Shown here: positions 8,033 through 53,251 of the stretch, in pieces
Layout: each line of letters starts with the position of its first letter
How positions within the stretch are numbered: position 1 is the stretch's first letter
From: an uncultured Gemmatimonadales bacterium
GTDB lineage: Bacteria > Gemmatimonadota > Gemmatimonadetes > Gemmatimonadales > GWC2-71-9
DNA length: 64,000 nucleotides
NCBI GenBank assembly: GCA_963695555.1
Contig: CAVOGR010000001.1
Location: 1-64,000 of the forward strand
Direction: 5' to 3'
Translations under genes and position numbers: made by a program
Notes under the pieces: generated by a model
Told to the model about the DNA's origin: nothing
The model's input: the letters and a program-made list of their open reading frames with translations, nothing else
The model's database searches: none

Positions 8033-8359
8033 ATGGAAGACAAGCTCTACAAGGAATTCATGGTGTCGCTGGGCGAGGCGCTCGACCATGCCAAGGGCAA
8101 GCTCGAGCTCCGCACAACGACCCTGCCAGCCCCGCCGCATCCCATGAGTGCGGACGAGATCAGGTCACTCCGAGAGGACATTCATGCCTCGCAGGCGGTC
8201 TTCGCCCATTGCCTGAACGTCAGCACCAAGCTGGTCCAAGCCTGGGAAGCAAACCGGCGTCAGCCGCAGGGAGCCGCTCTACGACTATTGGACCTCGCGC
8301 GCCGAGAGCCGCAGGTGGTGTTTGGTGAGTTGATCGAGGGAGTAGGGAGTAGGGAGTAG
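8033..8359 (+). CDS. HigA-like XRE HTH antitoxin
   Basis: EIRSLREDIHASQAVFAHCLNVSTKLVQAWEANRRQPQG; follows the toxin; C-terminus GVGSRE comes from the repeat tract. Confidence 0.85.
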   Translation: MEDKLYKEFMVSLGEALDHAKGKLELRTTTLPAPPHPMSADEIRSLREDIHASQAVFAHCLNVSTKLVQAWEANRRQPQGAALRLLDLARREPQVVFGELIEGVGSRE

Positions 8360-8387
8360 GGAGTGGGAAGGCGGGTAACCTCTGAAC

Positions 8388-8505
8388 TGTCATCCCGAGG
8401 GTGCGAAGCGCCCGAGGGATCTCACTACCGCATGCCCGGGGAGTCGTGGACCAAGGCCGCGTTCGGGTAGCAGTCGAGGAGATCCCTCGCTGCGCTCGGG
8501 ATGAC
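8388..8505 (+). repeat. Palindromic-ended element copy 2
   Basis: Same arms; spacer identical to copy 3. Confidence 0.95.
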
Positions 8506-8622
8506 GGAAGGCGGAAAGTCGGCCAGTGTGAAAGACGGAAAGGGCGAAGAGGAATCAGAAGTAGAATCCTTGACCGATTACTTCCCGTCTTCCCGCCTTT
8601 CCGTCTTAACGGTCGTCTGCCA

Positions 8623-8650
8623 TTGACATACAATCGTATGCTTCTAGCAT
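8623..8650 (+). promoter_or_regulatory. Sigma70-like promoter, probably leaderless, with overlapping CATAC/GTATG inverted repeats
   Basis: TTGACA-16 bp-TAGCAT, 6 bp before ATG 8657. Confidence 0.55.
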
Positions 8651-8656
8651 ACATAC

Positions 8657-9205
8657 ATGCTCGCCGCACTCCTGGGCTCCCGCGCCCGCGCCGCCATCCT
8701 GGCCCGTCTCCTCCTCGCCCCCGACCGGGAGGAGCATCTGCGCGAGCTGGCCCGCGCCACCGGCTTCGCGCCCCGCACCGTGCAGGTCGAGGTCGATCGG
8801 CTAGTCGCAGCCGGCATCGTGCACGAGCGGCGTTCCGGCAACCGTCGGTACCTCTCGGCGGAAAAAGGCCACCCACTCTACAGCGGACTGTGCCAACTTC
8901 TCCAGGAGAGTTACGGCCTCGAGGCCGCTCTCAAGGAAGCTGTCAGAGACGTGCCCGCTATCGAGGAGGCGTTCATGTTCGGCTCGGCCGGCCGCGGCGA
9001 GCGGCGCGCAGGGAGTGATGTGGACGTCCTACTGGTCGGGTCCATCGGAACCCGCCAGAGCCTGACGCTGCTCCGGCCGCTGGCAACCCGGTTCGGCGTC
9101 GAGATCTCTCCGGTCGTGTACTCCCCGAAGGAATTCCGGAAGCGCGCCCGCGTCCGAGGCTTCGTCGCCTCGGTGCTCGAGTCGAATCCTACGCGCTTGA
9201 AGTAG
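8657..9205 (+). CDS. wHTH plus minimal nucleotidyltransferase (MNT) antitoxin
   Basis: HLRELARATG HTH; FGSAGRGERRAGSDVDVL (GS...DxD). Confidence 0.8.
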   Translation: MLAALLGSRARAAILARLLLAPDREEHLRELARATGFAPRTVQVEVDRLVAAGIVHERRSGNRRYLSAEKGHPLYSGLCQLLQESYGLEAALKEAVRDVPAIEEAFMFGSAGRGERRAGSDVDVLLVGSIGTRQSLTLLRPLATRFGVEISPVVYSPKEFRKRARVRGFVASVLESNPTRLK

Positions 9206-9213
9206 TACCCCGT

Positions 9214-9663
9214 GTGACCACGCTCGACGACTGGCTGCGAAGCCGCTGGCTCACCGCCCACGTCCCCTCACCGAGCGAACTCGAGAATCTCCTGGCTATC
9301 GCAGAGCGTGACCTGGCGGATTCATCGGTGGCAGGTGTCTCGCTGGATGCCCAGTTGGGGCTCCTCTACAACGCCGCACTCAAGCTCGCCGACATCGCGC
9401 TCCGCCTGAGGGGCTTCCGCGCTGCGCGTGAGAACGCCCATTACCGCATCATCAACTCGCTGCCCCACACGTTGGGCGAACGGTGGGCCGAATCAGCCGA
9501 GTTCCTGGACCTGGTCCGAACACTACGCCACCGCGGTGACTATGAAGCCGTCGGCGTCGCGACCGAAGAGGTCGTCGCGGAGCTGCGGACGGAATTAGGT
9601 CGGCTGGGGCCTGCCGTGCGATCCGAGATCAAGACGAAGAGTGAGGAATGGAGTAAGGAGTGA
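9214..9663 (+). CDS. HEPN-domain protein (MNT partner)
   Basis: AERDLADS...LLYNAAL...RTLRHRGDY; directly downstream of the MNT gene. Confidence 0.7.
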   Translation: MTTLDDWLRSRWLTAHVPSPSELENLLAIAERDLADSSVAGVSLDAQLGLLYNAALKLADIALRLRGFRAARENAHYRIINSLPHTLGERWAESAEFLDLVRTLRHRGDYEAVGVATEEVVAELRTELGRLGPAVRSEIKTKSEEWSKE

Positions 9664-9746
9664 GCAGTAAGGAGTAAGGAGTGAGGAGGGAGGAGTGAGG
9701 AGTGAGGAGTGAAGAGTAAGGAGTAAGGAGTAAGGAGTAAGGAGTG
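9639..9746 (+). repeat. Long heptamer tract (GGAGTAA/GGAGTGA)n overlapping the HEPN stop codon
   Basis: About 15 degenerate units read directly. Confidence 0.95.
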
Positions 9747-9804
9747 TGCGACAGGGAGTGGGGAGTAGCCTGTAGGGAGTAGGAGGGCAGGGGAGGCTCT
9801 GGAT

Positions 9805-9923
9805 TGTCATCCCGAAGGTGCAGAGCGCCCGAGGGATCTCACTACCGCATGCCCGGGGAGTCGTGGACCAAGGCCGCGTTCGGGTAGCAGTCGAGGAGAT
9901 CCCTCGCTGCGCTCGGGATGACA
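9805..9923 (+). repeat. Palindromic-ended element copy 3
   Basis: Arms as in copy 1. Confidence 0.95.
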
Positions 9924-10387: not shown

Positions 10388-10399
10388 CGGCCCGCGCTC

Positions 10400-10627: not shown

Positions 10628-10794
10628 AAAGAGTTAGCCCGTGTCTCTGGTGATGTTATACTCCCATGCTACAATATATAACTTTTGTGTGACGGGGCAA
10701 GGAAGGGGAGGAGTAAAGGAGTGAGGAGTGAGGAGTGTGGATAGGGAGTGGGGAGTAGCATGTAGGGAGTAGGAGGGCAGGGTAGGCTCTGGAT

Positions 10795-10913
10795 TGTCAT
10801 CCCGAGGGTGCGAAGCGCCCGAGGGATCTCGTTAACGCATGCCCGGAGAGTTATCTGAGCGAGGCGGAGCTCGAGCCTCGTTAAGGAGATCCCTCGCTTC
10901 GCTCGGGATGACA
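10795..10913 (+). repeat. Palindromic-ended element copy 4
   Basis: Arms as in copy 1; extended flanks shared with copy 3. Confidence 0.95.
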
Positions 10914-11957: not shown

Positions 11958-12035
11958 GAGGAGTGAGGAGTGAGGAGTGGGATAGGGAGTAGGGAGTAGT
12001 ATGTAGGGAGTAGGAGGGCAGGGCAGGCTCTGGAT

Positions 12036-12155
12036 TGTCATCCCGAGGGTGCAGAGCGCCCGAGGGATCTCGTTAACGCATTTCTGGGGCGTTACGTGGG
12101 AGAGGCGGGGGTTGGGGAAAAATAAAGGAGATCCCTCGCTTCGCTCGGGATGACA
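12036..12155 (+). repeat. Palindromic-ended element copy 5
   Basis: Arms as in copy 1. Confidence 0.95.
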
Positions 12156-17836: not shown

Positions 17837-18173
17837 GAGCTCCTCCTTGGTGAATGAGCCGCCGCTACAGTGCGGTTGGGCGGTCTCGGAGTCGGAGGGG
17901 CGTCGAACGAACGGCGTCGAACCAGCGGCGGGATCGCCCAGGCCAGCGGCGATTGAGGTGTCGCGATTGTCCCCAAGTACTACTATGGGACACAAATGAT
18001 CGTGAGATTTGTGAGAAAAAAATTCACGAAAACGAGCGCTAGGGTTTTCCCTAAAACCCGAAGCGATGGGTCGTGAAAGAGGGAGGAGTGAGGAGTGAGG
18101 AGTGAGGAGTGAGACAGATAGCGGATGGGCGGCTCCGATGCACGCGATCCGCCGATCCGTCACGGGCTGCGTG

Positions 18174-19436: not shown

Positions 19437-19650
19437 GATACGACCTCCTGGGGGGGGTGAGGCCCTGAATCGCTGATTGGTAGATCTTCGTAACGTATCG
19501 GCAGGAGGAGAGCCGTCAACCGGGAAGACGGGAAGGCGGGAAGTGAGGAGTGAGGAGCGGGACAGACGGCGGATGGGTGGGTGGGCGGTTGGATGACGCC
19601 CGTCTATTCCATACATTCCGAACCGCCGAACCGCCGAACCGCCGAACCGC

Positions 19651-21219: not shown

Positions 21220-21340
21220 TGGTGTCGAATCCGGTCGGTGGATGTCGGGTAAGGTAGTACGGTTAGGTACGGTGCACGGGCCGGGGCGGTTTCTAAGGAG
21301 TGAGGAGTGAGGAGTGAGGAGGACCGGACAACCACGGAAC

Positions 21341-21461
21341 TGTCATCCCGAGGGTGCGGAGCACCCGAGGGATCTCGTTAACGCATGTCCGGGGAGTTTC
21401 CGAAGGCCCGGCGGAGGTCGGGGAACAGTTGAGTAGATCCCTCGCTTCGCTCGGGATGACA
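21341..21461 (+). repeat. Palindromic-ended element copy 6
   Basis: Arms as in copy 1. Confidence 0.95.
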
Positions 21462-21650
21462 CTCCCTGCACCCGACCGATAGCCGATAGCTGTTGGCCCT
21501 TTCGAGATCTCTCTATTCTCACGCGGCTAAAGCCGCTGCTCGGCACGGCGTGGCTGTCGCCACGCGCTGCGGGGGCAGAGATTCTTCCCGCGGCCACCTC
21601 CTCACTCCTTACTCCTTACTCCTCACTCTTAGACCAATAGCCAATAGCCC

Positions 21651-22130: not shown

Positions 22131-22425
22131 GATGTGATCTCAGTTGAAGTTCCGGGCTCCAGTTGGGATCCGACCCTGGATCGAGTGCGATTCGACGACC
22201 GGCAGCTATCGGCTATCGGTGCTTTGGTAAGGCTGAGAGCTGCTGATAGTACTAACCCAGCGGATCGATCCGTCCCTGCATCAAACGCCTAAATGTAGCC
22301 GGGAACTGAGTGCGCTGGGTGAGGGGAAGGCGGGAAGAGGGAAGTGAGAAAAGGGAGTAAGGAGTTAGGAGTGAGGAGTGAGGAGTGAGGAGTGGGGAGA
22401 GAGGAGGGCGGCCGTTTCTTTGGAT

Positions 22426-22543
22426 TGTCATCCCGAGCGAAGCGAGGGATCTCCTCGAAGCGTCCCGGACTCCGCATCGCATACGGAAGCTCCAAGCATG
22501 CTTTAACGAGATCCCTCGGGCGCTTCGCACCCTCGGGATGACA
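22426..22543 (-). repeat. Palindromic-ended element copy 7 (inverted)
   Basis: Short arm first, long arm last. Confidence 0.95.
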
Positions 22544-22717: not shown

Positions 22718-24310
22718 ATGCGATATCTCCTTAGTCTGACAGCACTTGCCGTCGCTACACCCCTGGCCGCCCAGAGCGCCGCGAAGCTCCAGCCGCCGTC
22801 TAAGGCCGTGACCAAGGCCGCCGCCACCATCACCCAGGCCGACGTGGCCCGACGGGTGGGTATCATCGCCGACGACTCGATGATGGGTCGCGATACGCCG
22901 AGCCAGGGGCTCGAACAGACGGCGGGATATATCGCGGGGCAGTTCAAGGCGTTCGGTTTGAAGCCCGCGGGCGACGACAACAGCTACCTCCAGCGCTATC
23001 CGTTGACACTGCGGAAGCTCAAGGTGGACGAGTCGTATATGCAGGCCGCGGAGGTTGAAGGGTTTGGGCTGGTGGTGCTGCCCTATGCGACGTCGGTGGT
23101 ACACCATGTCGGGCCGCTCACGGGAAAGCCGATCACCGCGCCGATGATCATGCTGGGCGGGCCGCCCGACCCCGAGAAGTTCCTGCCGGACAGCGTGCTC
23201 CAGGGCAAGTTCCTCATGTGGATCATGGACTGGGCCACGGTCGACAAGACCGGGAACGCCGTCGTCATGAAGGCCATGAGCGCCGGCATGGCCGGCATCG
23301 TCGCGATCAGCAATCGCAGCCAGGAAGAGGTGGCGCGGGAAGCCGCCCGGGCCGGTCGGGTACAGGTGTCACGCCCGAGCGCCGAAGGCCAGGCCTACAA
23401 CATCCCGCCGGGAGTTGAGGTGCCTGAGGCCGCGATCCTGGAGCAGGTCCCGGAGGCGCAGGAGACCTTCGACCAACTCCGGGCCGCAACCCAGACCACG
23501 ATGTTCCCCTTCCCGGAGTGGGAGGCCACCATCATGGCGGCCGACACCGTCCTCGGCGACACGACTGCCCCGAACGTGGTGGCGATTCTCGAGGGCAGCG
23601 ATCCCAAGCTCAAGAATGAGTACGTGCTCTACACCGCGCATATGGATCACATCGGCATCACCCCGGGCGCGCCCGACAGCATCAACAACGGCGCGGACGA
23701 CGACGCCTCGGGCACGGTGGGTGTGGTGGAGCTGGCGGAGGCGTTCAGCCAGCCGGGTGCGCGGCCCAAGCGGTCGGTCATCTTCGTTACGGTCAGCGGT
23801 GAGGAGAAGGGGCTCTGGGGCAGCGACTACTTCGCCACTCATCCGCCCGTGCCGCTCGAGCAGATCGTGGCCAACATCAACATCGACATGATCGGCCGGA
23901 ACTGGCCCGATACCATCGTCGCCATCGGCCGCGAGCACTCGGACCTGGGCCAGACCCTGGCCGCGGTCGACGCGGCGCATCCCGAGCTGGGCATGACCGT
24001 GATCGACGACCCGTGGCCGGAGGAGAACTACTACCGCCGGTCCGATCACTTCAACTTCGCCCGCCGCGGCGTCCCGATTCTGTTCTTCTTCAACGGCAAC
24101 CACGCCGACTACCACGGCGCCGGCGACTCGCCCGACAAGATCAATGCCGAGAAGGAAGCGCGGATCGTGAAGCTGCTGTTCTACCTGGGGCAGGAGATTG
24201 CCAACGCGCCCGAGCGGCCGGAGTGGAAGGCGGAGAGCTATAAGGAGATCGTGGGGGAGGGGAGTAAGGGAGTAGGGAGTAAGGAGTGGGGAGTAGGGAG
24301 TGAGGAGTGA
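22718..24310 (+). CDS. M28-family peptidase
   Basis: Signal peptide; GRDTPS, TAHMDHIG, NGADDDASG, GEEKGLWGS, RSDH, DYH. Confidence 0.9.
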   Translation: MRYLLSLTALAVATPLAAQSAAKLQPPSKAVTKAAATITQADVARRVGIIADDSMMGRDTPSQGLEQTAGYIAGQFKAFGLKPAGDDNSYLQRYPLTLRKLKVDESYMQAAEVEGFGLVVLPYATSVVHHVGPLTGKPITAPMIMLGGPPDPEKFLPDSVLQGKFLMWIMDWATVDKTGNAVVMKAMSAGMAGIVAISNRSQEEVAREAARAGRVQVSRPSAEGQAYNIPPGVEVPEAAILEQVPEAQETFDQLRAATQTTMFPFPEWEATIMAADTVLGDTTAPNVVAILEGSDPKLKNEYVLYTAHMDHIGITPGAPDSINNGADDDASGTVGVVELAEAFSQPGARPKRSVIFVTVSGEEKGLWGSDYFATHPPVPLEQIVANINIDMIGRNWPDTIVAIGREHSDLGQTLAAVDAAHPELGMTVIDDPWPEENYYRRSDHFNFARRGVPILFFFNGNHADYHGAGDSPDKINAEKEARIVKLLFYLGQEIANAPERPEWKAESYKEIVGEGSKGVGSKEWGVGSEE

Positions 24311-24346
24311 GGAGTAACGAGTGAGGAGGCCGGCTATTCTCGGGAT

Positions 24347-24467
24347 TGTCATCCCGAGGGTGCAAAGCGCCCGAGGGATCTCATCAACGCATGCCTGGGG
24401 ACTTTGCTTCGGCGAGGCGGAGGTCGAGGACCGGTTGAGGAGATCCCTCGCTGCGCTCGGGATGACA
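24347..24467 (+). repeat. Palindromic-ended element copy 8
   Basis: Arms as in copy 1. Confidence 0.95.
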
Positions 24468-26289: not shown

Positions 26290-26859
26290 ATGGAACACGT
26301 CGAGCGCTCGGGCACCTATTATCGGGTGTGCGGCCCCGACTGGGCCGACTGTGGCGACACGTCATACAGCAAACAGAAGGGCGGCCGTTGGAACCCGCCC
26401 GGAAGTTTCGGGGTGCTGTACCTGAACAAGACCCGTCAACTGGCGGCACTCCAGGCGCGGCTCAACTTCGTCGGGTCGCCCATCACGCTGTTCGACCTGA
26501 AGCCAGAGCGCCGTCCCCACCTGCAATCGTTCGTGATTCCCAAGCATCGCGTGGTCGACGCCGTGTCCGACCAGGGTCTCACCGCACTCGGCTTGCCCAC
26601 GACCTACCCGCATCGCGTCGGCCACGGCGTGACCCAGCCCATCGGCCAGGCCATGGTCGACGCCGGTGAGGATGGCATCGCGGCCCGGTCGGCGCTTCAG
26701 TCGACCAAACCGGGCGAGTGGTACGGCGAGGAACTGGCGGCGTTCGAGCGCTTTGCGGCGGAGTTCGTGGCGGGAAAACGGGAACGGTTCGCGGAGTGGT
26801 ATCCGAAGACGAGGGAACCGAAGGCGATGGGGAGTGAGGAGTGGGGGAGTGAGGAGTGA
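26290..26859 (+). CDS. RES-domain toxin
   Basis: GGRWNPPGSFGVLYL...TQPIGQAM...GIAARSA. Confidence 0.8.
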   Translation: MEHVERSGTYYRVCGPDWADCGDTSYSKQKGGRWNPPGSFGVLYLNKTRQLAALQARLNFVGSPITLFDLKPERRPHLQSFVIPKHRVVDAVSDQGLTALGLPTTYPHRVGHGVTQPIGQAMVDAGEDGIAARSALQSTKPGEWYGEELAAFERFAAEFVAGKRERFAEWYPKTREPKAMGSEEWGSEE

Positions 26860-26896
26860 GGAGTGAGGAGTAAGGAGGGTCGGGTACGCCTCGGAT

Positions 26897-27016
26897 TGTC
26901 ATCCCGAGCGGAGCGAGGGATCTCCTCAACTTCTTCCCGACCTCCGCCTCTCCCACGCAACGCGCTAGAAATGCGTTAACGAGATCCCTCGGGCGCTCTG
27001 CACCCTCGGGATGACA
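26897..27016 (-). repeat. Palindromic-ended element copy 9 (inverted)
   Basis: Short arm first; spacer related to copies 1 and 5. Confidence 0.95.
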
Positions 27017-27078
27017 ATCCGGAGCCTACCCTGTCCTCCTACTCCCTACATACTGCTCCCTACTCCCTTCCCCACTAC

Positions 27079-27732: not shown

Positions 27733-28034
27733 GGCGATAGGGAGTGGGGAATAGGGAGTAGGAAGTAGATATGCTTCGGACGGTAGGAATGTAGGCGGTG
27801 GGACGAGAGGCGGAAGACCAATGGGTATCCCGGTTGTTGAACCGACTCCCGACTCCCGACTCCCTCGTCTTGTGCTTCCCGCCGCCGATCCGGCGTCCGA
27901 TATTACGGGCGGAAAGAGGGTAAGGCGATAAGGGCGGGACGGTGGAATGTGTCGCCGATGGGCGCCCACGCCGCCTTTCCGACTTTCCAACTGTCCGACT
28001 TTGCGACTTTCCGACTTCTATTGCGAGGTTCCCC

Positions 28035-28496: not shown

Positions 28497-28914
28497 ATGC
28501 GCCCACTCCTCGTCGTTCTGGCCGCCGCGGCGGTGGTCGGTTGCAGCGGGCCCACCGAGGTCAACATCGATCAGGACTTCACCCTCGCCTTTGGCGAGTC
28601 GGTGACCATCGAGAAGCACCGGGATCACGATCACCTTCGAGGACGTACTGGAAGACAGCCGATGCCCGATCAATGCGGTCTGCGTGTGGGCGGGGAACGC
28701 CCGGATCCAGCTCGCGGTCAACACTCCTGCTCGGCATGTCGTGCTCCAGACCCGCTCCGACTCGAACTACGCCGTCGTGTACCAGGAAGGCATCCGGCAG
28801 CTGGTGGTCCAGCTCGGGAACCTGCTCCCCGAGCCCGTGGCTGGGGAAACGACCGACAAGCAGGACTACAAGTCGACTATGAAGGCGATGTGGTGGGAGA
28901 GGCTCGAGCAGTGA
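28497..28914 (+). CDS. Tandem paralogue of the preceding lipoprotein, frameshift near 28620
   Basis: VVGCSGPTEV...EDSRCPINAVCVWAGNARIQL. Confidence 0.7.
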
Positions 28915-29006
28915 GGAGTCAGGAGTAGTAGAGGAGTCAGGAGTAAGGAGTAAGGAGTGAGGAGTGAGGAGTAAGGAGTGAGGAGTGAGGAGTAAGGAGT
29001 GAGGAG
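28910..29006 (+). repeat. G-rich heptamer tract (GGAGTRA)n
   Basis: About 13 units; paired with the C-rich tract 29156-29220 across element copy 10. Confidence 0.95.
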
Positions 29007-29023: not shown

Positions 29024-29142
29024 TGTCATCCCGAGGGTGCGAAGCGCCCGAGGGATCTCATCAACGCATGCCCGGGGAGTCGCGGACCAAGGCCGCGTTC
29101 GAGTAGCAGTCGAGGAGATCCCTCGCTGCGCTCGGGATGACA
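29024..29142 (+). repeat. Palindromic-ended element copy 10
   Basis: Spacer nearly identical to copies 2 and 3. Confidence 0.95.
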
Positions 29143-29205
29143 CCGCGCACGACGTCCTACTCCCGACTCCCGACTCTCGACTCCCGACCCCCTACTCCCT
29201 ACTCC

Positions 29206-30648: not shown

Positions 30649-30706
30649 TGATGGAGTAGGGAGTAGGGAGTAGGGAGTAGGGAGTCCGAGAGATGAAAAG
30701 GTATTC

Positions 30707-31213
30707 TGTCATCCCGAGGGTGCGCAGCGCCCGAGGGATCTCGTCAGTCCTGGCTCGTGAGGCGCAGTGACATCAACGGCGACAATTTGGTGCAGATGTT
30801 AGCAGACCGGGCAGCTATTCTGAGGCGTCTCAGTCAGGCAGGTCCAGCATAGCAACCAAGATCATGCAGGTCTACATCTTAGCCAGTCGCTCGCGGAAAT
30901 TGTACGTTGGCGTCACGGCGGACTTGCCGCGTAGAATCTACCAGCATCGCACTGGTCAGGCACTGAGTTTCACTTCACGATACGGCATCACATGGCTCGT
31001 GTACTATGAATGCGCTTCTAGCCCACGGGCGGCGATCGAACGGGAAAAGAGACTGAAGAAGTGGTCTCGTTCCAAGAAGATCGCCCTGGTCGAATCCTCG
31101 AACCCTGACTGGAGAGACCTGGCGGCCAATTGGTTTCCCCGACCCCATGTATCTTATTGGGAATCGGGCTACGGGACAGGGTGAGGAGACCCCTCGCTCT
31201 GCTCGGGATGACA
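30707..31213 (+). mobile_element. Candidate autonomous element: long arm - GIY-YIG gene - short arm (507 bp)
   Basis: Long arm 30707-30742 and short arm 31186-31213, same sequence family and orientation as the 11 short copies; mobility is inferred. Confidence 0.7.
30864..31184 (+). CDS. Stand-alone GIY-YIG nuclease
   Basis: VYILAS...LYVGVT...RRIYQHR...FTSRY...LVYYE...AIEREKRLKKWSRSKK...NPDWRDL. Confidence 0.9.
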   Translation: MQVYILASRSRKLYVGVTADLPRRIYQHRTGQALSFTSRYGITWLVYYECASSPRAAIEREKRLKKWSRSKKIALVESSNPDWRDLAANWFPRPHVSYWESGYGTG

Positions 31214-31312
31214 CAGGAGGGTCGAACTGTTCACGACTGACTATGGGCATCGTTCCAATTCCCAGCCTCCCCACTCATTAGACTGTTCCCTACTCCCTAC
31301 TCCCTAAAGAGC

Positions 31313-32928: not shown

Positions 32929-33849
32929 GTGCCCACCATCGCCTGCATTGGCGGCACCACGCTCGACCGGCGGGCCCGCGCCCACAGCCCGCTGATCACG
33001 GGCACGTCCAATCCCGCGACGGTCACTACCAAGCCCGGCGGGGTCGCACGGAACGTGGCCGACTGGCTCAGCCAGCTCGGTGTGGACGTGGCGCTCTACT
33101 CGGCGCTGGGCGATGACCGCGCGGGCTACGACCTCCTGCGGCAGCTCGCGACCAACGGGGTCGATGTGTCCGGCGTGCGACGCTCGGCCGATCTTCCCAC
33201 GGCGACGTACACCGCAGCCCTGGAGCCGGATGGCGAGCTCGCGCTCGGGCTTGCGGACATGGAGATCTTCGAGCGGCTGGACGCGGACTGGTGTGACTCG
33301 ATTGCACCGGCGATCGAGCAATGCCCCCTCTGGTTGGTGGATGCCAACCTGCCTCGGGCCACGCTCGACTACCTGCTCAACACCTACGGCGACAACGCCA
33401 CCATCGTGGCCGATCCGGTGTCGGTGGCCAAGGCCGAACGGTTGCGGCCCTACTTGGATGCGGTGGACGTGGTGTTCCCCGACCGGAAAGAAGCCGCGAT
33501 CCTGAGCGGTCTCCTGACCGAAACGCCCGAACAGGTCGCGGCCGCCGCGGCCCAGATCTGGGACCTCGGCCCCGGCATGGTCATCGTATCGCTCGGCGCC
33601 GACGGCATCTATCTGGAGGACGGCACCCGACACGAGGCGATCCCCTCGATTCCGGCCAACCAGGTGAGCGATGTAACCGGTGCGGGCGACGCCCTCGTCG
33701 CCGGATATCTCTACGGCCTCGCGACCGACCACGGCGACCCCGTCCGGTGCGGCCTGGCCGCGGCCAGCCTGGCGCTCGAGGTGAATGCCGGACAGGCCGA
33801 CGGGATGACGGTGGATGCGCTGATGGAAAGAGTGAGGAGTGAGGAGTGA
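32929..33849 (+). CDS. psuK: PfkB sugar kinase, probable pseudouridine kinase
   Basis: GGVARNVA, DVTGAGDA; adjacent to psuG. Confidence 0.75.
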   Translation: MPTIACIGGTTLDRRARAHSPLITGTSNPATVTTKPGGVARNVADWLSQLGVDVALYSALGDDRAGYDLLRQLATNGVDVSGVRRSADLPTATYTAALEPDGELALGLADMEIFERLDADWCDSIAPAIEQCPLWLVDANLPRATLDYLLNTYGDNATIVADPVSVAKAERLRPYLDAVDVVFPDRKEAAILSGLLTETPEQVAAAAAQIWDLGPGMVIVSLGADGIYLEDGTRHEAIPSIPANQVSDVTGAGDALVAGYLYGLATDHGDPVRCGLAAASLALEVNAGQADGMTVDALMERVRSEE

Positions 33850-33986: not shown

Positions 33987-34904
33987 ATGCACCTCTTACA
34001 CATCCGCCCCGAAGTTCGTGACGCGCTGGCCGAGCGTCGCCCGGTCGTGGCGCTCGAATCGACGGTCATCGCGCATGGGTTGCCGAGGCCGCGGAACCTC
34101 GAGACCGCGAGGGCGCTCGAGGCCCAGGTGCGGGAGGAGGGGGCGGTGCCCGCCACCATCGGTATCGTCGACGGGCGGGCGGTGATCGGCTTGTCCGATC
34201 GGGAGCTCGAGACGCTGGCCACGACGGATCATGTGCTCAAGACGAGCACGGCCGACATTGCCGCCGTGGTCGCGTCGAAGGGACTCGGAGCCACCACCGT
34301 GGCGGGCACGGCATATCTCGCCGCCAGAGCCGGGATCAGGGTCATGGCCACGGGCGGCATCGGTGGGGTCCACCGTGGCGGCGACGAGACCTTTGACATT
34401 TCGGCCGATCTGACCGAGCTCGCCCGGAGCCGGATTGCGGTGGTATCGGCCGGAGCCAAATCGGTACTCGACCTGGCCAGGACCCTCGAGGTGCTGGAGA
34501 CCATAGGCGTGCCGGTCGTGGGATACGGCACCACCGAATTTCCGGCCTTCTATTCGCGGGACAGCGGCCTCACCCTGGTGCACCGGGTGAACACGCCGGC
34601 GGAAGCGGCGCGGCTGGTCGAGGCTCAGTGGGAGCTGGGTCTTTCGTCGGCCATCGTGTTCGCCAACCCGCCGCCGCGCGACGTTGCGATCGATCGCTGG
34701 GAGGTGGAGACCTGGATCGGGCAGGCGCTCGAGGCCGCGGAGACCCACAGCATCACCGGCAAGGCGGTCACCCCGTATTTGTTGGCGGAACTGGTGCTCC
34801 TGAGCCATAGCCGCACACTCGAGACCAACGTGGCGGTGCTCCTTAACAACGCACGTCTCGCCGGTCGGATAGCAAAGGAGTGGGGAGTAGGGAGTAGGGA
34901 GTAG
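33987..34904 (+). CDS. psuG: Pseudouridine-5'-phosphate glycosidase
   Basis: VVALESTVIAHGLP, ATTVAGT, TGGIGGVHRG, DISADL, GKAVTPYLL. Confidence 0.95.
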   Translation: MHLLHIRPEVRDALAERRPVVALESTVIAHGLPRPRNLETARALEAQVREEGAVPATIGIVDGRAVIGLSDRELETLATTDHVLKTSTADIAAVVASKGLGATTVAGTAYLAARAGIRVMATGGIGGVHRGGDETFDISADLTELARSRIAVVSAGAKSVLDLARTLEVLETIGVPVVGYGTTEFPAFYSRDSGLTLVHRVNTPAEAARLVEAQWELGLSSAIVFANPPPRDVAIDRWEVETWIGQALEAAETHSITGKAVTPYLLAELVLLSHSRTLETNVAVLLNNARLAGRIAKEWGVGSRE

Positions 34905-34934
34905 GGGGTGAGGAGGACCGGAAAACCACGGAAC

Positions 34935-35053
34935 TGTCATCCCGAGGGAGCGGAGCGCCCGAGGGATCTCATGAACGCGTGCCCCGAGCCTTGTGTGAGT
35001 GAACGAAATTCGGGAAAGCGTTGAGGAGATCCCTCGCTGCGCTCGGGATGACA
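34935..35053 (+). repeat. Palindromic-ended element copy 11
   Basis: Arms as in copy 1; between convergent genes that both end in GSRE. Confidence 0.95.
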
Positions 35054-35074
35054 CCGAGCACAACGTCCGACTCC

Positions 35075-35521
35075 CTACTCCCTACTCCCTGCACTCACGT
35101 ACTCCGCTAGCTCCCGCAGCTCTCGTTTCCACCCGGCCACATTCGCCTCGTAGTGCTTGGTGGTAGTGAAGCCGGTTTCTTCGAGCCGGAGCGTGGTGCC
35201 GCCGTCGTGACGTGGCGCAAGGGTCCACTCGACGCGCGTCGTGATGCCCACGTCGACCGGAATGCCGGGCTCGAGCGACCAGCGCCACGCAAGTCTCCGA
35301 TGTGGCTGGATGATCTCGAACTTGGCTGCGTGGCGGCCGTGTGTGCGCCAGGTCCAGGCGCCGTTGCCCCCGGGCCGGAGGTCGACTTCCGCCTGGTCGG
35401 AAAACCAGTGGCTGAGTTCGATCGGGTCGGTCAGCGCTCGCCATAGGCGCTCGGGTGGGGCCGCGAGGTCCAGCGTTCGCTCGATGGCGGGGATGTGCCG
35501 GGTCTGTGAGCCGCTGATCAT
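35075..35521 (-). CDS. SRPBCC/AHSA1-domain protein
   Basis: APPERLWRALTDP...VDLRPGG...GTTLRLEETGF...GW. Confidence 0.85.
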   Translation of the reverse strand: MISGSQTRHIPAIERTLDLAAPPERLWRALTDPIELSHWFSDQAEVDLRPGGNGAWTWRTHGRHAAKFEIIQPHRRLAWRWSLEPGIPVDVGITTRVEWTLAPRHDGGTTLRLEETGFTTTKHYEANVAGWKRELRELAEYVSAGSRE

Positions 35522-37869: not shown

Positions 37870-38022
37870 CCAGAAGAGGGAGTAGGGAGTAGGGAGTGGG
37901 GACTGGGTCTTGCTCGAACTCCACCGATGAAATCGCATGCGCCCGCGCCTCTCTTTGGTGACCCCTGCGCACCTCACTTCTTATTCCTTACGCTCTTGTT
38001 CTCACTCCCTACTCCCTACTCC

Positions 38023-39639
38023 CTACTCCCTACTCCCTACTCCCTGTAGCACCCTTCCGTCGATCGCTCCGGCCGGCCGCACGCCCAGCAGCGCTGCGAG
38101 AGTCGGTGCGATGTCCACGGTTCGCACCCGCTGCGCGTGCCGGCCCGGCGCGATGCCGGGGCCGGCGAAGAGGAGCGGCACGTGGGTGTCGTGCGGGTGC
38201 GGGCTGCCGTGCGAGGTCCCGTTGGGACTATTGGTAATCAGGATGTCCTCCCGGGGCACGATCATCACGTCTGCGGAGCGGCCGAGGTAGTAGCTACGGC
38301 GATAGGCATCGAAGTACGGGCGGGTGCTATCGGGTCCCGCGACGAGTTCGTCCGACGTGTAGGCCTCGAGCACCGCGGGCGACTGTCGGAGTGCCATGGC
38401 CATCATGCGCCGCGCGTCAACCTGGTTCTGCTCTCCGGTACCGGGTGGAAATTCCATCACCACTCCGCCGGACATGGTGATCGCGGGAGCGGTGGTGTCG
38501 GCCGCGAGGGCCTGCATCACGAGGGTGTCCAGCGCGCGCCGCGAGGCCCGTGCCGCGCGGAAGCCGCGGCGGGCCGATTCTTCCGGCATCGTCATTACCC
38601 CGTGGTCGGCCGTGAGGGTCACGGCGTAGTTGGCCCGGCCGACCGTCTGATCCAGGAAGACGAACAGCGAGTCGAGCTGGAGGTCGAGCCGGAGATAGAA
38701 GTCTTCCACTTCCTGACTGTACGGACCGTAGGCATGGCCGACGTAGTCGGCGGCGGACAGCCCGATGAACAGGATATCGGGCCGCTCGTCGGCCCCCAGT
38801 CGCTCGTTCGTCACGAGCTCCCGCGCGAAGGCCAGGGTGACTTCATCGGCGAAGGGTGAGCGCAAGAAGATCCGGTCGTAGAACCGCTGCCAGCCGCCGT
38901 CTTCTTCGCGGGCTTCGATCAGGTGTGGGAAGGTGGAACTCCCGCTATCGTACTCCGGGGCGAAATCATCCTCCCGTGAGGCGACGTAGGTCGACTCGGC
39001 ATAGAGCCGCTCCCAGTGCCGGCCGTTGTAGGCCGCGGCGGGCTCGGCCGCGTTGAACTGGCTCACCCACTCCGGGTAGTCGGATCGGTAATAGACCGAA
39101 GTGACGAAGTGGCCGGTGGCGGCGTAGTACCAATAGACGCCGTCCGGCCGTTTCCCACCCATCGCGATCGCGGCTCGGTCTTTGATGGCGACGGAAAAGA
39201 CCCGGCTCCGCGGCGAGCGCCGCTTGAGCCAGTCACCCAAGGCGGTGGTCTTCATGTTGGCCGGTGAGCGGCCCGGTGCGTCGGGTATGCCCACGATCGG
39301 CGCCGCAGGATCATCGAACGAGTAGACTGTCCGGTGCGTCGAGCGATCGTACCAGTTGTTCTGCATGATTCCGTTGCGGGAGGGAAAGGCGCCCGTCGAG
39401 ATCGCCGCATGTCCCGGTGCGGTTTCCGTCAACGCGTGGTCCTGGTAGGCGTCGGTGAATACCGCTCCGTCACGAAGGAGCCGTGCCAGTCCGCCAGTGA
39501 AGCGGTCGTCGAAGCGGTCCAGGTAGTCCGGCCGCATCTGGTCGACGGCGATGACCACCACGAGCCGCGGCCCCTCGAGCGGCGGCCGGCAGGCGAGGAA
39601 GGAGACCAGCAGAACGGAGAGACAGCGTGCACGAATCAT
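38023..39639 (-). CDS. Alkaline phosphatase superfamily protein (PafA-like)
   Basis: VDQMR, TETAPGHA, KDRAAI, DYVGHAYGP, TADHG, HGSP. Confidence 0.9.
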   Translation of the reverse strand: MIRARCLSVLLVSFLACRPPLEGPRLVVVIAVDQMRPDYLDRFDDRFTGGLARLLRDGAVFTDAYQDHALTETAPGHAAISTGAFPSRNGIMQNNWYDRSTHRTVYSFDDPAAPIVGIPDAPGRSPANMKTTALGDWLKRRSPRSRVFSVAIKDRAAIAMGGKRPDGVYWYYAATGHFVTSVYYRSDYPEWVSQFNAAEPAAAYNGRHWERLYAESTYVASREDDFAPEYDSGSSTFPHLIEAREEDGGWQRFYDRIFLRSPFADEVTLAFARELVTNERLGADERPDILFIGLSAADYVGHAYGPYSQEVEDFYLRLDLQLDSLFVFLDQTVGRANYAVTLTADHGVMTMPEESARRGFRAARASRRALDTLVMQALAADTTAPAITMSGGVVMEFPPGTGEQNQVDARRMMAMALRQSPAVLEAYTSDELVAGPDSTRPYFDAYRRSYYLGRSADVMIVPREDILITNSPNGTSHGSPHPHDTHVPLLFAGPGIAPGRHAQRVRTVDIAPTLAALLGVRPAGAIDGRVLQGVGSRE

Positions 39640-46672: not shown

Positions 46673-47019
46673 TGGGAGGGAGTAGGGAGTGGGATGGTAG
46701 GGAGTAGGACCTGGAAAGGGGGGCCGACGACAGATTGCCGGCCTCTTCTCTTTTTCGTCGCTTCTGTCCTCGGACGACTCCCTTACCATCCTACTCCCTA
46801 CTCCCTACTCCCTACTGCCAATCACCGCATCTCACCAGCCCTTCTGTCACGATTCGTTACAACAGCGCCTCCTGAACCATCAAATAGCCCCTCTACGCTG
46901 GTCTCCATCTTGCTCATCATCACCCCAGGAGGGGCGGATCCCCCGAGAGTCAGTATTCCGACTGGCCCATTCGCCCTTCTCCTTGACTCATTTCAGGCGA
47001 GAGCCGGTGGGAGACGGAC

Positions 47020-49788: not shown

Positions 49789-50070
49789 AGTGACGATCCG
49801 TGGTGGAAGGAACGCCCTAAATGGAACGTGGGATGGGGCGCAGGGGAAGGGGTGAGCAAGGGAGTAGGGAGTAGGGAGTGGGGGAATGAGGCGGAAGGTG
49901 GTTGGTCGGTCGGACGGAACGTGAGTGGAATGTTGTTTTCTGGCTCGCCTTTCGCCTTTCGCCTTTTTGCTTCTTCGCCTCTTCGGCTTCCCGCCTTCCC
50001 GTCTCCCGCCCTAGTCCTGGCACGCCCTTTGCCTTTTGGACTAACGACGAAACGGACCTCGATGTGACGG

Positions 50071-50724
50071 ATGACCACGCGGGATGCGCGCATGAGCCGT
50101 TCGACGCCAACCCAACCTGCCCGGGCTCTCCGGGCGCCGCGCCAGTCGGCGATTGGCTTGCCGATGGGCCTGGGGCTCTGCGTCGTGGGGTGGATCATGC
50201 CGCTCCCGATCGAGTCAGCTGCGCGGGCGCCGGAGCCGCCGGCGCGATTGACCATCGAGCGCTCGCTGCTCGGTAAGTTGCAGACCCTCGCGGCCGGACT
50301 CCGCTTGGAAATCGTCCTGTGTCTCGAGGGTACGCATACCGGCGATGGCGTGCACCTCACCGACTTCTTCATGCCCGATCCCGAAATGGCGGCCGGCGCA
50401 CGTGTGCTGGCTGCCCCCTGCCAAAGCACCACCGCCGCCGTGTGGCACAATCATCCGTTCGTGGACGCATTCCATGGGCCGGACGGAGTTCGCCCGCGTG
50501 GCGAACCCATTCGCGAGCCGCGACAACTCTGCGCGCTGTCTCGGAGCGACATCCGGACGACGATCGAGCGCGGCTATCCGTTCGTCGTGGTATCGGTCGA
50601 CGCCGAGACCTGGTGCTGGTGGACCCTCGACCAGGTCAAGCGGTTCGGGAGTGAACGGCTGCCGCTCGGACCAGCGATCGATGGACAAGGCTCCTGGCGC
50701 GGCCCCATCGCGTCGCTGCCCTAG
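50071..50724 (+). CDS. Hypothetical membrane-anchored/exported protein with JAB/MPN-like residues
   Basis: Hydrophobic N-terminal segment; EIVLCL...WHNHP...LSRSD. Confidence 0.5.
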   Translation: MTTRDARMSRSTPTQPARALRAPRQSAIGLPMGLGLCVVGWIMPLPIESAARAPEPPARLTIERSLLGKLQTLAAGLRLEIVLCLEGTHTGDGVHLTDFFMPDPEMAAGARVLAAPCQSTTAAVWHNHPFVDAFHGPDGVRPRGEPIREPRQLCALSRSDIRTTIERGYPFVVVSVDAETWCWWTLDQVKRFGSERLPLGPAIDGQGSWRGPIASLP

Positions 50725-51186
50725 GCCGCCCATTCACGGCACCGCAACACCACAACCAGTTGTAGAACGTCTTCCGCTGGTAAAGAATCCCGTAGTGGAG
50801 AATTCCGCTCGGGACCTTTCCTGTCTCTGCTGCGCCTGGAAGCTCGGCTGCCTCGGTCCAGCCGGCTCCATCGAATCAAGTGCCGTACCTGCAATGTTTT
50901 ACCCGTGAACCACCCGTCCGTGCTCGACGGCGCGGCGCTTGACGGGCCCGTCTGGACTGACCGCCTTCCTTACCGACCGGGGAATTGGGACCTATATTGT
51001 CCTATCTGCCGGTGCCCCGTCCGTTGGACATCAGGCGTCCATCTCGTTTGACCGTTCCGGGGAGAGCACCTGCGAATTAGCACCCTTACCTCTGTGTTTC
51101 CCAGTGGACCCGCCCCCACGGGTCCGTGTGTTCGTCCCGGGCCGGCACCCGCTCGCCCGGGATTCGTTTATCACCAAGGAGGAGTA

Positions 51187-52638
51187 ATGTCAGGAATCAG
51201 GAACTCGATGCGATTCTTGGGCCTCGCGCTGGCCGCGTGGGCCCTGGCCCCCGGAATCGCAGCGCAACAGGCCTACGAATCGCCGGCCGCGGCGAAGCTC
51301 GAGGTCACGTCCGCGTCGGCCGAAGCGAACAAGCACTTCTGGGCCGGTGTGAGCGACGCGGAGAACGTCTTCTTCACCAGTGCCACAGCGCATTTCGATA
51401 AGGCGCTCGAGGCCGATCCGGCATTCGGTATGGCACGGGTATTCCGTGCCCGGAGTGCCGCGGGCATGAACCAAGCCGCCCGCCTGGCCGAGATCAACAA
51501 GGGTATCTCGGAGTTGAGCGGGGCCAGGACCGGTGAGTTGCTGACCGCGCTGGGAATGCGCGAGTGGACCGCCGGCAACCTAAAGGAAGCCATGGCCATC
51601 TTCGGGACCGCATCCAAGATGATGCCAGGAGATCCGCACCTGGCCTTGTACCGGGCCAACGTGACCGGTGGCGCGACCAACCCCGAGCGGGGCATCGCGG
51701 CCACCCGGTCGGTCACCGAGGACTTTCCCGAGTTCGCACCCGCGTGGAACACTTTGGGCTATCAGCTCTGGCAGGCTGGTGACCGGGCCGGCGGGCTCGA
51801 GGCCATCAAGAAGTACGCGGAACTCGCACCCGACCATCCCAACGCGCACGACTCCTATGCCGAGCTGCTGCAATGGAGTGGGCGCTACAATGACGCGATG
51901 ACCCACTATCGCCGGGCGGCGGAACTCGATCCGACCTACGGCGCGGCCTACACCGGCATGGCCGAAGTCTCGCAGATGATGGGCGCCGGCGATCACGCCC
52001 GGCGGCACTTGAATGAGGCCATCGAGCATGCTGCGGGGCCCAATGCCAAGGTCAACCTGATGCGGGGCATCGGCACCAGCTACGTGATCGACGGCAATAT
52101 GAAGGCAGCGGTTCAGCAGTTCACCGCCGCCGCCACGGAGGCCGAGAAGGCTGGCAACAAGAACCTGGCGGGGCTCGCGCTCCAGCAGGCGGCGATGGTC
52201 GAAGCCGTAGCGGGCAAGAAGGGCGATGCCGCAACCCATCTGACCAAGGCCGGCGAGATGATGGGTGCGGACAACCCACAGCAGCTGGGAACCGCGGCGA
52301 TGGTCAATGCCAGAATCGGGAACAGTGCGGTGGCGATGGAGTCGGCCAAGAAGCTTGGGGAGGCCGCCAGCAAAGGCCCCGCCGGCATGAAGAATTTTTC
52401 CCACCTGGTGAACGGTGCGGTCTACCTGCATGCCAACCAGGTCGACAAGGCCGTGGCGGAGCTGGCCCAGGCCGACCCGGACGATTACGTGGCCAAGGCA
52501 TTGCTCGCCTCATGCTATGACAAGATGGGTCAGAAGGCCAATGCCGCAGCCCTACGCGAGGAAGTCGTCTCGGATCGTCGGTACGGTCTCGGCGACGTGG
52601 GCTACATGATCGCACGACTGGAAGTGATGAAGAAGTAA
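51187..52638 (+). CDS. Exported TPR protein (related to 35788..37296)
   Basis: AAGGAGG RBS; signal peptide; VTSASAEA...HFDKALEADPAF resembles the other TPR protein. Confidence 0.85.
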   Translation: MSGIRNSMRFLGLALAAWALAPGIAAQQAYESPAAAKLEVTSASAEANKHFWAGVSDAENVFFTSATAHFDKALEADPAFGMARVFRARSAAGMNQAARLAEINKGISELSGARTGELLTALGMREWTAGNLKEAMAIFGTASKMMPGDPHLALYRANVTGGATNPERGIAATRSVTEDFPEFAPAWNTLGYQLWQAGDRAGGLEAIKKYAELAPDHPNAHDSYAELLQWSGRYNDAMTHYRRAAELDPTYGAAYTGMAEVSQMMGAGDHARRHLNEAIEHAAGPNAKVNLMRGIGTSYVIDGNMKAAVQQFTAAATEAEKAGNKNLAGLALQQAAMVEAVAGKKGDAATHLTKAGEMMGADNPQQLGTAAMVNARIGNSAVAMESAKKLGEAASKGPAGMKNFSHLVNGAVYLHANQVDKAVAELAQADPDDYVAKALLASCYDKMGQKANAAALREEVVSDRRYGLGDVGYMIARLEVMKK

Positions 52639-52756
52639 GTGCAGGGAGTAGGATTATAGGTTTGTAGGTTGTAGGAGTCGGGAAGGTGGGAAGTGCTGAT
52701 CAGCTAATTTCTGGTCCGCCTTTCCGCCTTTCCGCCTTTCCCTCATCTTCAACTAC

Positions 52757-53194
52757 ATGCCTACACCCCTACTTCCAACCAACCGGTCCTGGTCTTTCTC
52801 GCTCCCGGCCGAGTTCGGCCATCGGGATGTGACGCCCGACGTGGAAGCCTTGGTTCGAGACTCGGGTATCCGGACCGGGGTATTGGTGGTGCAGTTGGTG
52901 GGTTCCACCGGCGCCATCACCACCATCGAATACGAGCCGGGTGCGCTCGAGGACCTGCGCCGTGCACTCGACCTCATCGCACCGGCCAACGAGGACTACG
53001 CCCACAACGCCCGATGGGGCGACGGAAACGGATTCTCCCATGTCCGTTCCGCACTCCTCAAAACTAGCCTGGCCATTCCGATTATCGCCGGCCGACTAGC
53101 CCTCGGCGCCTGGCAGCAAGTGGTGGTGATCAACCTGGACAATCGAGATCGCCGGCGGGAGATTGTGGGTGTGGTGGTAGGGAGTAGAGAGTAG
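52757..53194 (+). CDS. YjbQ/UPF0047 family protein
   Basis: GSTGAITTIEYEPG, YAHN, NGFSHVRSALL, LGAWQQVV. Confidence 0.9.
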   Translation: MPTPLLPTNRSWSFSLPAEFGHRDVTPDVEALVRDSGIRTGVLVVQLVGSTGAITTIEYEPGALEDLRRALDLIAPANEDYAHNARWGDGNGFSHVRSALLKTSLAIPIIAGRLALGAWQQVVVINLDNRDRRREIVGVVVGSRE

Positions 53195-53251
53195 AGAGTA
53201 GGGGATAGGAAGGCGGAGCAATGCCGAATCACCTATGTCTACCAATTGCCC

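Follow-up and report, generated by a model that had tools for sequence, protein, structure and literature searches.

Stop-bearing GGAGTRR heptamer arrays on palindromic spacer elements code for the last residues and stop codons of unrelated genes in an uncultured Gemmatimonadales bacterium

The DNA analyzed here (hereafter the window) covers positions 1 to 64,000 of contig C1 from the assembly of an uncultured Gemmatimonadales bacterium (G000; 3.57 Mb, 65% G+C, 14 contigs), and it is marked by tandem arrays of the heptamer GGAGTRR, that is, GGAG followed by a stop codon or TGG, many of which lie at the very ends of genes. The double unit, GGAGTRRGGAGTRR, was found 70 times in the window, against a mean of 0.02 and a maximum of 1 in 100 dinucleotide-preserving shuffles of the window, and Tandem Repeats Finder reported 111 rows there, with periods of 7 or 8 predominating; Rfam at gathering scores gave no match anywhere in the window. 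With a tract strictly defined as at least two perfect GGAGTRR units, a register-aware script located 34 tract segments in the window and 122 tracts genome-wide. Genes were called with a simple codon-usage gene caller, which gave 3257 genes genome-wide with rough start codons, and gene ends were compared with genomes of the same genus, including G002 and G003.

The initial annotation of this DNA had listed ten open reading frames (ORFs) that run into tracts and end with tails coded by the repeat, and all ten do end inside a tract with the listed tails. Named by the coordinate of the gene end, the tails are GVGSRE (8359), (K)SEEWSKE (9663), GSKGVGSKEWGVGSEE (24310), GSEEWGSEE (26859), GSRE (29206, minus strand), VRSEE (33849), EWGVGSRE (34904), GSRE (35075, minus strand), GVGSRE (38023, minus strand), and GSRE (53194). 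Nine of the ten ends fall within strictly defined tracts, the exception being 53181-53201 with one perfect unit, and an eleventh gene (28684-28914) takes its TGA stop from the degenerate first unit of a tract. Pfam domains were identified in eight of the ten ORFs (M28 peptidase, RES, NmrA/DUF2867, PfkB, Indigoidine_A, AHSA1, phosphodiesterase, and UPF0047), each domain ending a few residues ahead of the tail, and ORFs 7994-8359 and 9214-9663 are taken as genes on coding potential alone. Genome-wide, 33 of the 3257 called genes terminate within a tract; the tracts indeed provide both stop codons and C-termini, as first proposed. C-terminal SRE was counted 13 times against 0.74 expected from the internal frequency of the tripeptide, SEE 7 times against 0.52, and SKE 5 times against 0.19, or 25 genes together against about 1.5 expected.

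The way in which these genes end follows from the unit itself. As T plus two purines makes a stop codon, the purine-rich strand reading away from a gene carries one stop per 7-nt unit, and as seven is not a multiple of three, translation in any frame runs into a stop by the third unit. Accordingly, the coding sequence inside the tract measures 4 nt in 11 genes, 11 nt in 8, and 18 nt in 12 (31 of the 33 genes, covering all three frames), and the remaining two genes read further into the tract via TGG units. These lengths bear out the claim of the initial annotation that the heptamers stop all three frames, and they fit its suggestion that the tracts are tolerated since they terminate translation themselves. 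The start points of the period-7 runs are spread between -25 and +13 nt of the stop codon, with one at -41 and no peak at 0; together with the entry in all frames, this indicates that the tracts were not simply seeded on native stops.

The tracts form the gene-facing, purine-rich arms of palindromes that fill the spacers, and many of these palindromes enclose a 117-bp transposable element of the miniature inverted-repeat type (MITE). The terminal inverted repeats (TIRs) of this element are unequal, being 34-nt and 26-nt forms of GTCATCCCGAG...CGAGGGATCT, and complete copies number 11 in the window and 15 in the genome. All 19 spacers with a MITE end hold a tract, and 75 tract-bearing spacers are without a MITE end. 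Each of the 15 complete copies is bordered, on the outer side of its long TIR, by a conserved linker (about 20 nt) and by units of the GGAGTRR type. In four window copies, homology extends at least 55 nt past the TIR, through the linker and into the left arrays; in three of five aligned copies, the right linker and a CCGCCGAT-type octamer array are homologous as well.

MITE-type ends also enclose a GIY-YIG nuclease gene (30864-31184; 106 aa; PF01541, E = 1.8e-13), which lies between the tract arms 30653-30680 and 31290-31303 and is the sole intact copy in the assembly. The nearest solved chain to its product is 1zg2 (UPF0213; E = 1.5e-5), and the protein has no match in NCBIfam. Of the 35 TIR hits in the genome, 24 are located in the same 50 kb as this gene. 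The TIR-gene-TIR unit is also found in another genome, G001, with a nuclease of 55% protein identity, and in G004 a 6-nt remnant of the MITE persists between intact arms downstream of psuG. Across 41 genomes compared for co-occurrence, the presence of a GIY-YIG homolog correlates poorly with GGAGTRR tracts. No target-site duplication was seen for the MITE, nor any clean pair of empty and filled sites, including at the psuK-psuG spacer, where the spacers of G000 and G002 differ wholesale, so that the element ends are not definable there. A 105-aa gene with an Smr (nicking endonuclease) domain (G000:C2:47460-47777; L069:7460-7777, minus strand) lies together with a MITE in the 742-nt loop between two GGAGTRR arms and is a second small nuclease gene so placed. 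The tracts, MITE copies, and element features of the window are as follows.

7132..7159 (+): GGAGTRR tract, 4 units; left arm, partner 7517-7544
7182..7299 (+): 117-bp MITE copy, long TIR first
7517..7544 (-): tract, 4 units; right arm
8339..8366 (+): tract, 4 units; GVGSRE and TAG stop of ORF 7994-8359
8389..8505 (+): MITE copy
9650..9768 (+): tract, 14+2 units; WSKE and TGA stop of ORF 9214-9663
9806..9922 (+): MITE copy; flanks homologous to those of copies 10796 and 12037
10718..10758 (+): tract, 3+2 units; upstream of and antisense to antitoxin-like gene 10400-10627(-)
10796..10912 (+): MITE copy
11960..11999 (+): tract, 3+2 units; begins 2 nt past TGA stop of ORF ending 11957
12037..12154 (+): MITE copy
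18085..18112 (+): tract, 4 units; spacer upstream of gene 17336-17836(-)
19540..19560 (+): tract, 3 units
21297..21317 (+): tract, 3 units; left arm
21342..21460 (+): MITE copy
21602..21629 (-): tract, 4 units; right arm, 21 nt past stop of 21651-22130(-)
22354..22402 (+): tract, 7 units
22427..22542 (-): MITE copy, inverted; only a short degenerate GGAGTRR-type run outside its long end
24269..24324 (+): tract, 8 units; last 13 codons and TGA stop of M28 peptidase gene ending 24310
24348..24466 (+): MITE copy
26831..26873 (+): tract, 2+4 units; GSEEWGSEE and TGA stop of RES-domain gene 26290-26859
26898..27015 (-): MITE copy, inverted
27053..27066 (-): tract, 2 units; 12 nt past stop of 27079-27732(-)
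27741..27768 (+): tract, 4 units; adjoins 5' side of 27079-27732(-)
28908..29002 (+): tract, 3+10 units; TGA stop of ORF 28684-28914 lies in the degenerate first unit
29025..29141 (+): MITE copy
29157..29219 (-): tract, 2+4 units; GSRE and TAG stop of NmrA/DUF2867 gene 29206-30648(-)
30653..30680 (+): tract, 4 units; on the opposite strand, 4 nt from start codon of 29206-30648(-); left arm flanking the GIY-YIG element
30708..31213 (+): full-length TIR element; long TIR 30708-30741, degenerate short TIR about 31183-31213
30864..31184 (+): 106-aa GIY-YIG nuclease gene within the TIR element
31290..31303 (-): tract, 2 units; right arm, 9 nt ahead of start of 31313-32788(+)
33829..33849 (+): tract, 3 units; RVRSEE and TGA stop of PfkB (psuK-like) gene
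34877..34911 (+): tract, 5 units; KEWGVGSRE and TAG stop of Indigoidine_A (psuG-like) gene
34936..35052 (+): MITE copy in loop of the 34877/35068 hairpin
35068..35088 (-): tract, 3 units; GSRE and TAG stop of AHSA1 gene 35075-35545(-)
37879..37906 (+): tract, 4 units; left arm
38002..38043 (-): tract, 6 units; GVGSRE and TAG stop of phosphodiesterase gene 38023-39639(-)
46679..46692 (+): tract, 2 units; left arm, 6 nt past stop of DUF5916 gene
46791..46818 (-): tract, 4 units; right arm
49861..49881 (+): tract, 3 units; upstream of and antisense to 48136-49758(-)
53181..53201 (+): degenerate tract, 3 units; GSRE and TAG stop of UPF0047 gene 52757-53194

At 30649-30680, the array stands 4 nt from the conserved start codon of 29206-30648(-), which leaves no space for a Shine-Dalgarno sequence on the sense strand.

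The placement of the tracts with respect to genes is strongly polar. Genome-wide, a single one of the 122 tracts lies within a called gene, and in 104 of them the purine-rich strand points away from the nearest gene. Within the spacer, 65 of 119 tracts occupy the tenth nearest the gene behind them and one occupies the far tenth. For 83 tracts the gene behind presents its 3' end (33 overlap the gene and 24 come no more than 10 nt after it), and for 38 its 5' end; beside gene starts, the tracts sit on the antisense strand. When period-7 arrays of any unit abutting 3' ends were considered (n = 80), 68 had a stop on the sense strand and 7 on the antisense strand. By spacer type, the frequency of tracts was 28/402 for convergent and 54/2437 for tandem spacers.

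Of the arm pairs, 18 are convergent (plus then minus strand), with loop lengths between 2 and 742 nt, and 4 have the reverse order; 78 of 114 merged arms are without a complementary GGAGTRR partner within 2 kb. Folding is much more stable for spacers with paired arms than for their shuffles (34870-35095, z = -9.65; 46670-46825, z = -7.57), the folds beginning a few nt from the stop, and a spacer in which the second arm is an unrelated octamer array folds slightly better than its shuffles (z = -2.47). Four units is the most frequent tract length (35 of 122), in particular among tracts of G-ending units (28/75 versus 7/47 for the others, p = 0.008), and the canonical motif of four G3+ runs, here simply a motif count, occurs in 43 of the 122 tracts.

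The repeats are also unevenly distributed along the genome. Of the 254 double-unit hits, C1 carries 70 in its initial 50 kb and 32 at 700-800 kb, and C2 carries 63 in its initial 150 kb; period-8 arrays and the MITE follow the same regional pattern; expressed as concentration, heptamer arrays, octamer arrays, and MITEs are enriched 10- to 25-fold in window 1-53 kb, C1:700-830 kb, and C2:1-115 kb. MITE ends are clustered in G002 too, and the start of C2, considered as a syntenic continuation of the window in G002, gave one 420-bp match only. A comparison of 25-kb bins with many tracts and with none revealed no clear difference in codon-usage score, GC content, gene length, or strand switches, the sole difference among the features compared being a lower coding density in the tract-rich bins. 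In addition, a second heptamer family, GCTATTG/CCAATAG, forms inverted pairs of its own (window 6885-6906, 15013-15135, 15727-15748, and 32790-32866), and in G002 some gene ends that bear GGAGTRR arms in G000 have this family in their place.

Several other features of the window deserve mention. The first 9.8 kb have almost no counterpart in G002 and are therefore probably accessory DNA. A fragment of a UvrD-like helicase near the contig start (352-1086) covers the end of the N-terminal and the start of the C-terminal domain. Toxin-antitoxin-like pairs are found in 7668-10627 and 25894-26859, comprising a weak RelE-like ORF with its partner, an MNT-like nucleotidyltransferase with its partner, Fic/Doc with a MazE/Phd-like antitoxin, and a helix-turn-helix protein with a RES-domain protein. 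Toward the other end of the window, an S9 peptidase of the DPP-IV type appears split into an N-terminal ORF (DPPIV_N; 48136-49788, minus strand) and a short C-terminal ORF (Peptidase_S9; 47515-47931, minus strand), which may reflect a broken gene or a sequencing frameshift.

The gene ends were next compared with those of relatives. Perfect triple units are abundant in three of four same-genus genomes and in one other genus of the family, and none occur in G003, whose syntenic contig has two imperfect GGGAGTA arrays and mostly arrays of GAGWCGT. Gene ends were matched by synteny, with protein identities mostly of 83-97% for G002 and 53-81% for G003. Between G000 and G002, the tails differ in five of eight genes (M28, RES, NmrA/DUF2867, PsuG, and AHSA1) despite protein bodies that are 89-95% identical; PfkB and the phosphodiesterase have the same tail in both genomes, and the UPF0047 tails are almost identical. 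The M28 peptidase ends with GEGSKGVGSKEWGVGSEE in G000 and with GEGSRSRE in G002, a length difference of ten residues. PsuG ends with KEWGVGSRE in G000, GELGVMSEG in G002, and IASLKSRD in G003, and the AHSA1 protein with SAGSRE, KSEEAIG, and DVSRET, respectively, the G003 tail being coded by its own GTGAGWC array. At gene 39816-41153(-), three different arrays are found in the three genomes, each beginning at the stop. Judged from these alignments, the tails turn over fast among genomes of one genus.

The same comparisons show that native ends have been replaced, as the initial annotation had supposed. One case is gene 31313-32788, which ends with the non-repeat residues YGAVD in G000 and YGVES in G003, and with tract-coded LRSEE of equal length, codon for codon, in G002. 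In PsuG, the closest named matches to which are 93-94% identical and come from Gemmatimonadales metagenome-assembled genomes (MAGs), the residues past the last conserved motif are variable in sequence and number about 4 to more than 10 among 29 relatives; as this end is naturally variable, the nine tract-coded residues in G000 replace rather than extend it. More generally, the tract-coded tails take the place of the variable last 4-9 residues. In a Lewinellaceae MAG of the Bacteroidota (L064), the last residues and the stop of a PsuG homolog are coded by a long GGAAYTGA octamer array, so that the same phenomenon exists with an 8-nt unit in another phylum.

The spacers change along with the gene ends. 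In G003, psuK and psuG overlap and have no spacer at all; in G000 and G002, genomes about 90% identical, the psuK-psuG spacer shares its left array, beyond which the contents are wholly different. Consistent with slippage, a contig of a related population carries two additional units (14 nt) at 25699 and lacks one octamer unit (8 nt) at 22611. Public sequencing runs were represented by contigs, and these break at tracts, which makes coverage gaps at tracts uninformative; a contig of run X4 nevertheless covers 34899-35277 with zero differences. In G002, assembled independently, psuK and the phosphodiesterase gene have the same tract-coded ends.

On the whole, we consider it probable that the tracts are slippage-prone repeats on spacer-filling palindromes that encroach on gene ends, and that the tails are tolerated by-products rather than a device. 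On this proposal, the GGAGTRR tracts would be simple repeats liable to slippage that make up the outer, gene-facing arms of palindromic elements lying flush against coding sequence, the element consisting of the array arms and, often, of the 117-bp inverted-repeat core, itself probably derived from a small GIY-YIG-nuclease element. When the boundary of an array drifts over a native stop, or when a whole element lands or is exchanged there, translation would end at most about 20 nt further on, and only dispensable last residues would be swapped for repeat-coded ones (...GSRE, ...SEE, or ...SKE). Selection, in the form of survivorship, may then have left only stop-bearing arms abutting 3' ends. 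Several observations weigh against parts of this proposal. In divergent spacers, which have no need of stops, the polarity is likewise present (14 to 4), and a factor other than translation termination may set it, for instance the symmetry of the hairpins or avoidance of GGAG and GTG upstream of starts. Non-stop TGG units make up 34 of 297 units at 3' ends and 20 of 124 at 5' ends (Fisher p = 0.20), and with the TGG share no lower at 3' ends in a significant way there is no direct sign of selection for stops. The occurrence of one unit at 122 loci and its strong regional clustering exceed what local slippage alone explains. Finally, the phosphodiesterase tail (GVGSRE/GVGTRR) is retained genus-wide, down to 60% protein identity, so some tails are old or kept.

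Other explanations place the selective value or the motive force elsewhere. The arrays could be selected RNA or DNA structures (hairpins or G-quadruplexes) positioned after stops and before starts, acting like REP elements as 3'-end stabilizers, terminators, or translation modulators, with the coded tails as a side effect. This possibility, which overlaps with the encroachment proposal and which we hold only tentatively, draws on the stability of the paired arms, the excess of convergent arm pairs, the frequency of tracts in convergent spacers, the four-unit peak of G-ending units, and the G3+ motif, and it parallels the four-unit preference and G-quadruplex formation described for Xanthomonas and Nostoc heptamers (PMC4692102). 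The majority of merged arms, however, have no complementary partner nearby, the spacer with non-complementary arms barely beats its shuffles, and spacer contents are swapped wholesale between genomes about 90% identical, which does not point to a conserved regulatory role. Alternatively, the arrays could be the termini of a composite mobile element (array-linker-TIR-core-TIR-linker-array) that would spread as one piece, with a small GIY-YIG (Ssn-like) nuclease moving it or prompting its movement, and that could land on gene ends because its termini stop all frames. The presence of a tract in every MITE-bearing spacer, the tract and conserved linker beside the long TIR of every complete MITE, the homology between copies that runs past the TIRs, and the position of the only intact nuclease gene between the same TIRs and between tract arms all argue for such an element, as do the concentration of TIR hits around that gene, the TIR-gene-TIR unit in G001, and the MITE remnant in G004, which shows that hairpins made of arms alone can arise from hairpins with a MITE. 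Against this stand the 75 tract-bearing spacers without a MITE and the mismatch between tracts and nuclease among genomes: in G002, TIR hits number 30 and triple-unit tract hits 169, yet this query found no close nuclease homolog there (best E = 4.6e-11, with internal stops), and G009, G010, G020, and G021 have close homologs but almost no GGAGTRR tracts. With the lack of a target-site duplication or a clean empty-versus-filled site, and the wholesale difference of the psuK-psuG spacer, we regard a composite mobile element as unlikely. A more speculative version, to which we assign a low probability, is that the heptamer and octamer arrays, rather than being independent microsatellites, are the growing ends of a composite palindromic mobile element built around the hairpin-ended cassette of a small GIY-YIG (Ssn-like) nuclease, and that cuts by the nuclease at hairpins drive local spread and array growth. 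If true, it would explain why repeats cluster around the one nuclease gene, termini with a stop in every frame would enable the element to colonize the extreme ends of genes, and heptamer arrays and nuclease-linked hairpin repeats would share one mechanism.

Functions for the coded ends themselves, both raised in the initial annotation, are less consistent with the comparative data. Units such as TAAGGAG and TGAGGAG resemble Shine-Dalgarno sequences and might hold or re-recruit ribosomes at the 3' ends of mRNAs; GGAG does serve as a Shine-Dalgarno core in this genome, 723 of 3255 called genes having it at -20 to -4, versus 271 in a control window, and a TGA-type array contains, per 21 nt, a mini-ORF of GGAG, 6 nt, GTG, four codons, and TGA. 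In arms behind 3' ends, however, the commonest unit type (43% of units) has TAG as its last three bases and offers no start codon, downstream genes start about 200-300 nt away, which makes translational coupling impossible, the corresponding gene ends in G003 are capped by GAGWCGT units, in which GGAG is absent, and GGAG is likewise absent from other arrays of G000 such as GCTATTG and the octamers. Ribosome binding is thus a very improbable role. That the tails serve as a shared C-terminal tag, for example a degron or sorting signal, would accord with the 25 unrelated proteins with ...GSRE, ...SEE, or ...SKE ends and with the retained phosphodiesterase tail, but it can be largely discounted: five of eight tails differ between G000 and G002, those of G003 differ again at the same genes, tail length within one gene varies by up to ten residues, and the sequence of a tail is mechanically determined by the repeat and the frame of entry. 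An origin of the tracts in assembly or sequencing error, which the breaking of short-read contigs of public runs at tracts might suggest, is scarcely credible, since tracts occur at the same gene ends in the independent assemblies G002 and G004 and in locus L037, the X4 contig spans its tract region unchanged, and an artefact would not give rise to a strand orientation tied to the genes.

Palindromic or tandem repeats in intergenic DNA beside stop codons are familiar from REP/BIME, MIRUs, and cyanobacterial STRR heptamers, all with other units, sizes, and enzymes, and MIRUs overlap the stops and starts of flanking genes. GGAGTRR is a new repeat of a kind already described, its unit differing from GGGAATC, GGGGAYT, and TAACTGA, and its main features (three-frame stops, overlap with ORF ends, polarity, and four-unit preference) are already in print for these other heptamers (PMC4679880; PMC4692102). 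No literature on GGAGTRR arrays or Gemmatimonadales repeats was found, though the searches were not aimed at this point. According to Rehm et al. (2015; PMC4692102), period-7 arrays of GGGAATC in Xanthomonas and GGGGAYT in Nostoc are enriched in non-coding DNA, with the G-rich strand as the sense strand within 50 bp after stops, sometimes overlapping them, and as the antisense strand just upstream of starts; tandemly inverted pairs, a preference for four units, a canonical G-quadruplex motif in many copies, and G-quadruplex formation are also reported. GGAGTRR shares the non-coding bias, the polarity, the stop overlap, the inverted pairs, the four units, and the motif, and differs in having stop-bearing units and in being clustered in few regions and often joined to a MITE core; a G-quadruplex here would be a prediction from the motif. 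The TAACTGA direct repeats of marine Beggiatoaceae (MacGregor, 2015; PMC4679880) give three-frame stops in one orientation and overlap ORF ends by up to 18 nt, with 13 cases overlapping the stop of the upstream gene, and insertion is argued to be tolerated at protein ends only. GGAGTRR similarly stops all three frames and overlaps ORF ends by about 18 nt at most in 31 of 33 genes; TAACTGA mostly points toward the downstream start codon and is discussed as a 5' regulatory element, whereas GGAGTRR points away from the nearest gene, forms inverted pairs, and belongs to another lineage.

Two further systems are comparable. In Geobacter metallireducens, four-fold heptanucleotides and paired octanucleotides have been read as regulator-binding sites (Aklujkar et al., 2009; PMC2700814). 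Like the GGAGTRR arrays, they comprise 7- or 8-nt units repeated four to five times, in opposite-strand pairs at many intergenic sites, and the consensus MTYCTGA holds a stop; unlike them, they are given no mention of stop-codon overlap in the available text of PMC2700814. The Ssn GIY-YIG single-strand nucleases are flanked by NTS/SRM hairpin repeats (Chenal et al., 2025; PMC11893778), and the element described here is similar, in that copies of a GTCAT-stem-loop-stem-TC hairpin, which is also scattered in clusters, lie on the 5' and 3' sides of a small GIY-YIG gene with a single domain; the MITE ends resemble the Neisseria NTS hairpin. In contrast to Ssn/SRM, the hairpins here are the ends of a 117-bp MITE, and the gene product is a predicted nuclease. 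The published SRM search pattern, which the TIRs do not match, gave no hits in the window and a number no higher than chance in the genome (42 hits, with 4 in the first 500 kb of C1 versus 6-12 in shuffles).

These arrays open no new mechanism, the principle being in print for other heptamers. Automatic annotation will list the repeat-coded tails as genuine protein sequence, and about 1% of the proteins of this genome (33 of 3257 called genes) bear a short stretch of junk residues, which is not the same from one close relative to the next. The locus offers a clean three-genome view of the speed at which arrays overwrite gene ends and whole spacers, and it reveals a stop-bearing heptamer family that is physically linked with a GIY-YIG hairpin element in Gemmatimonadales.

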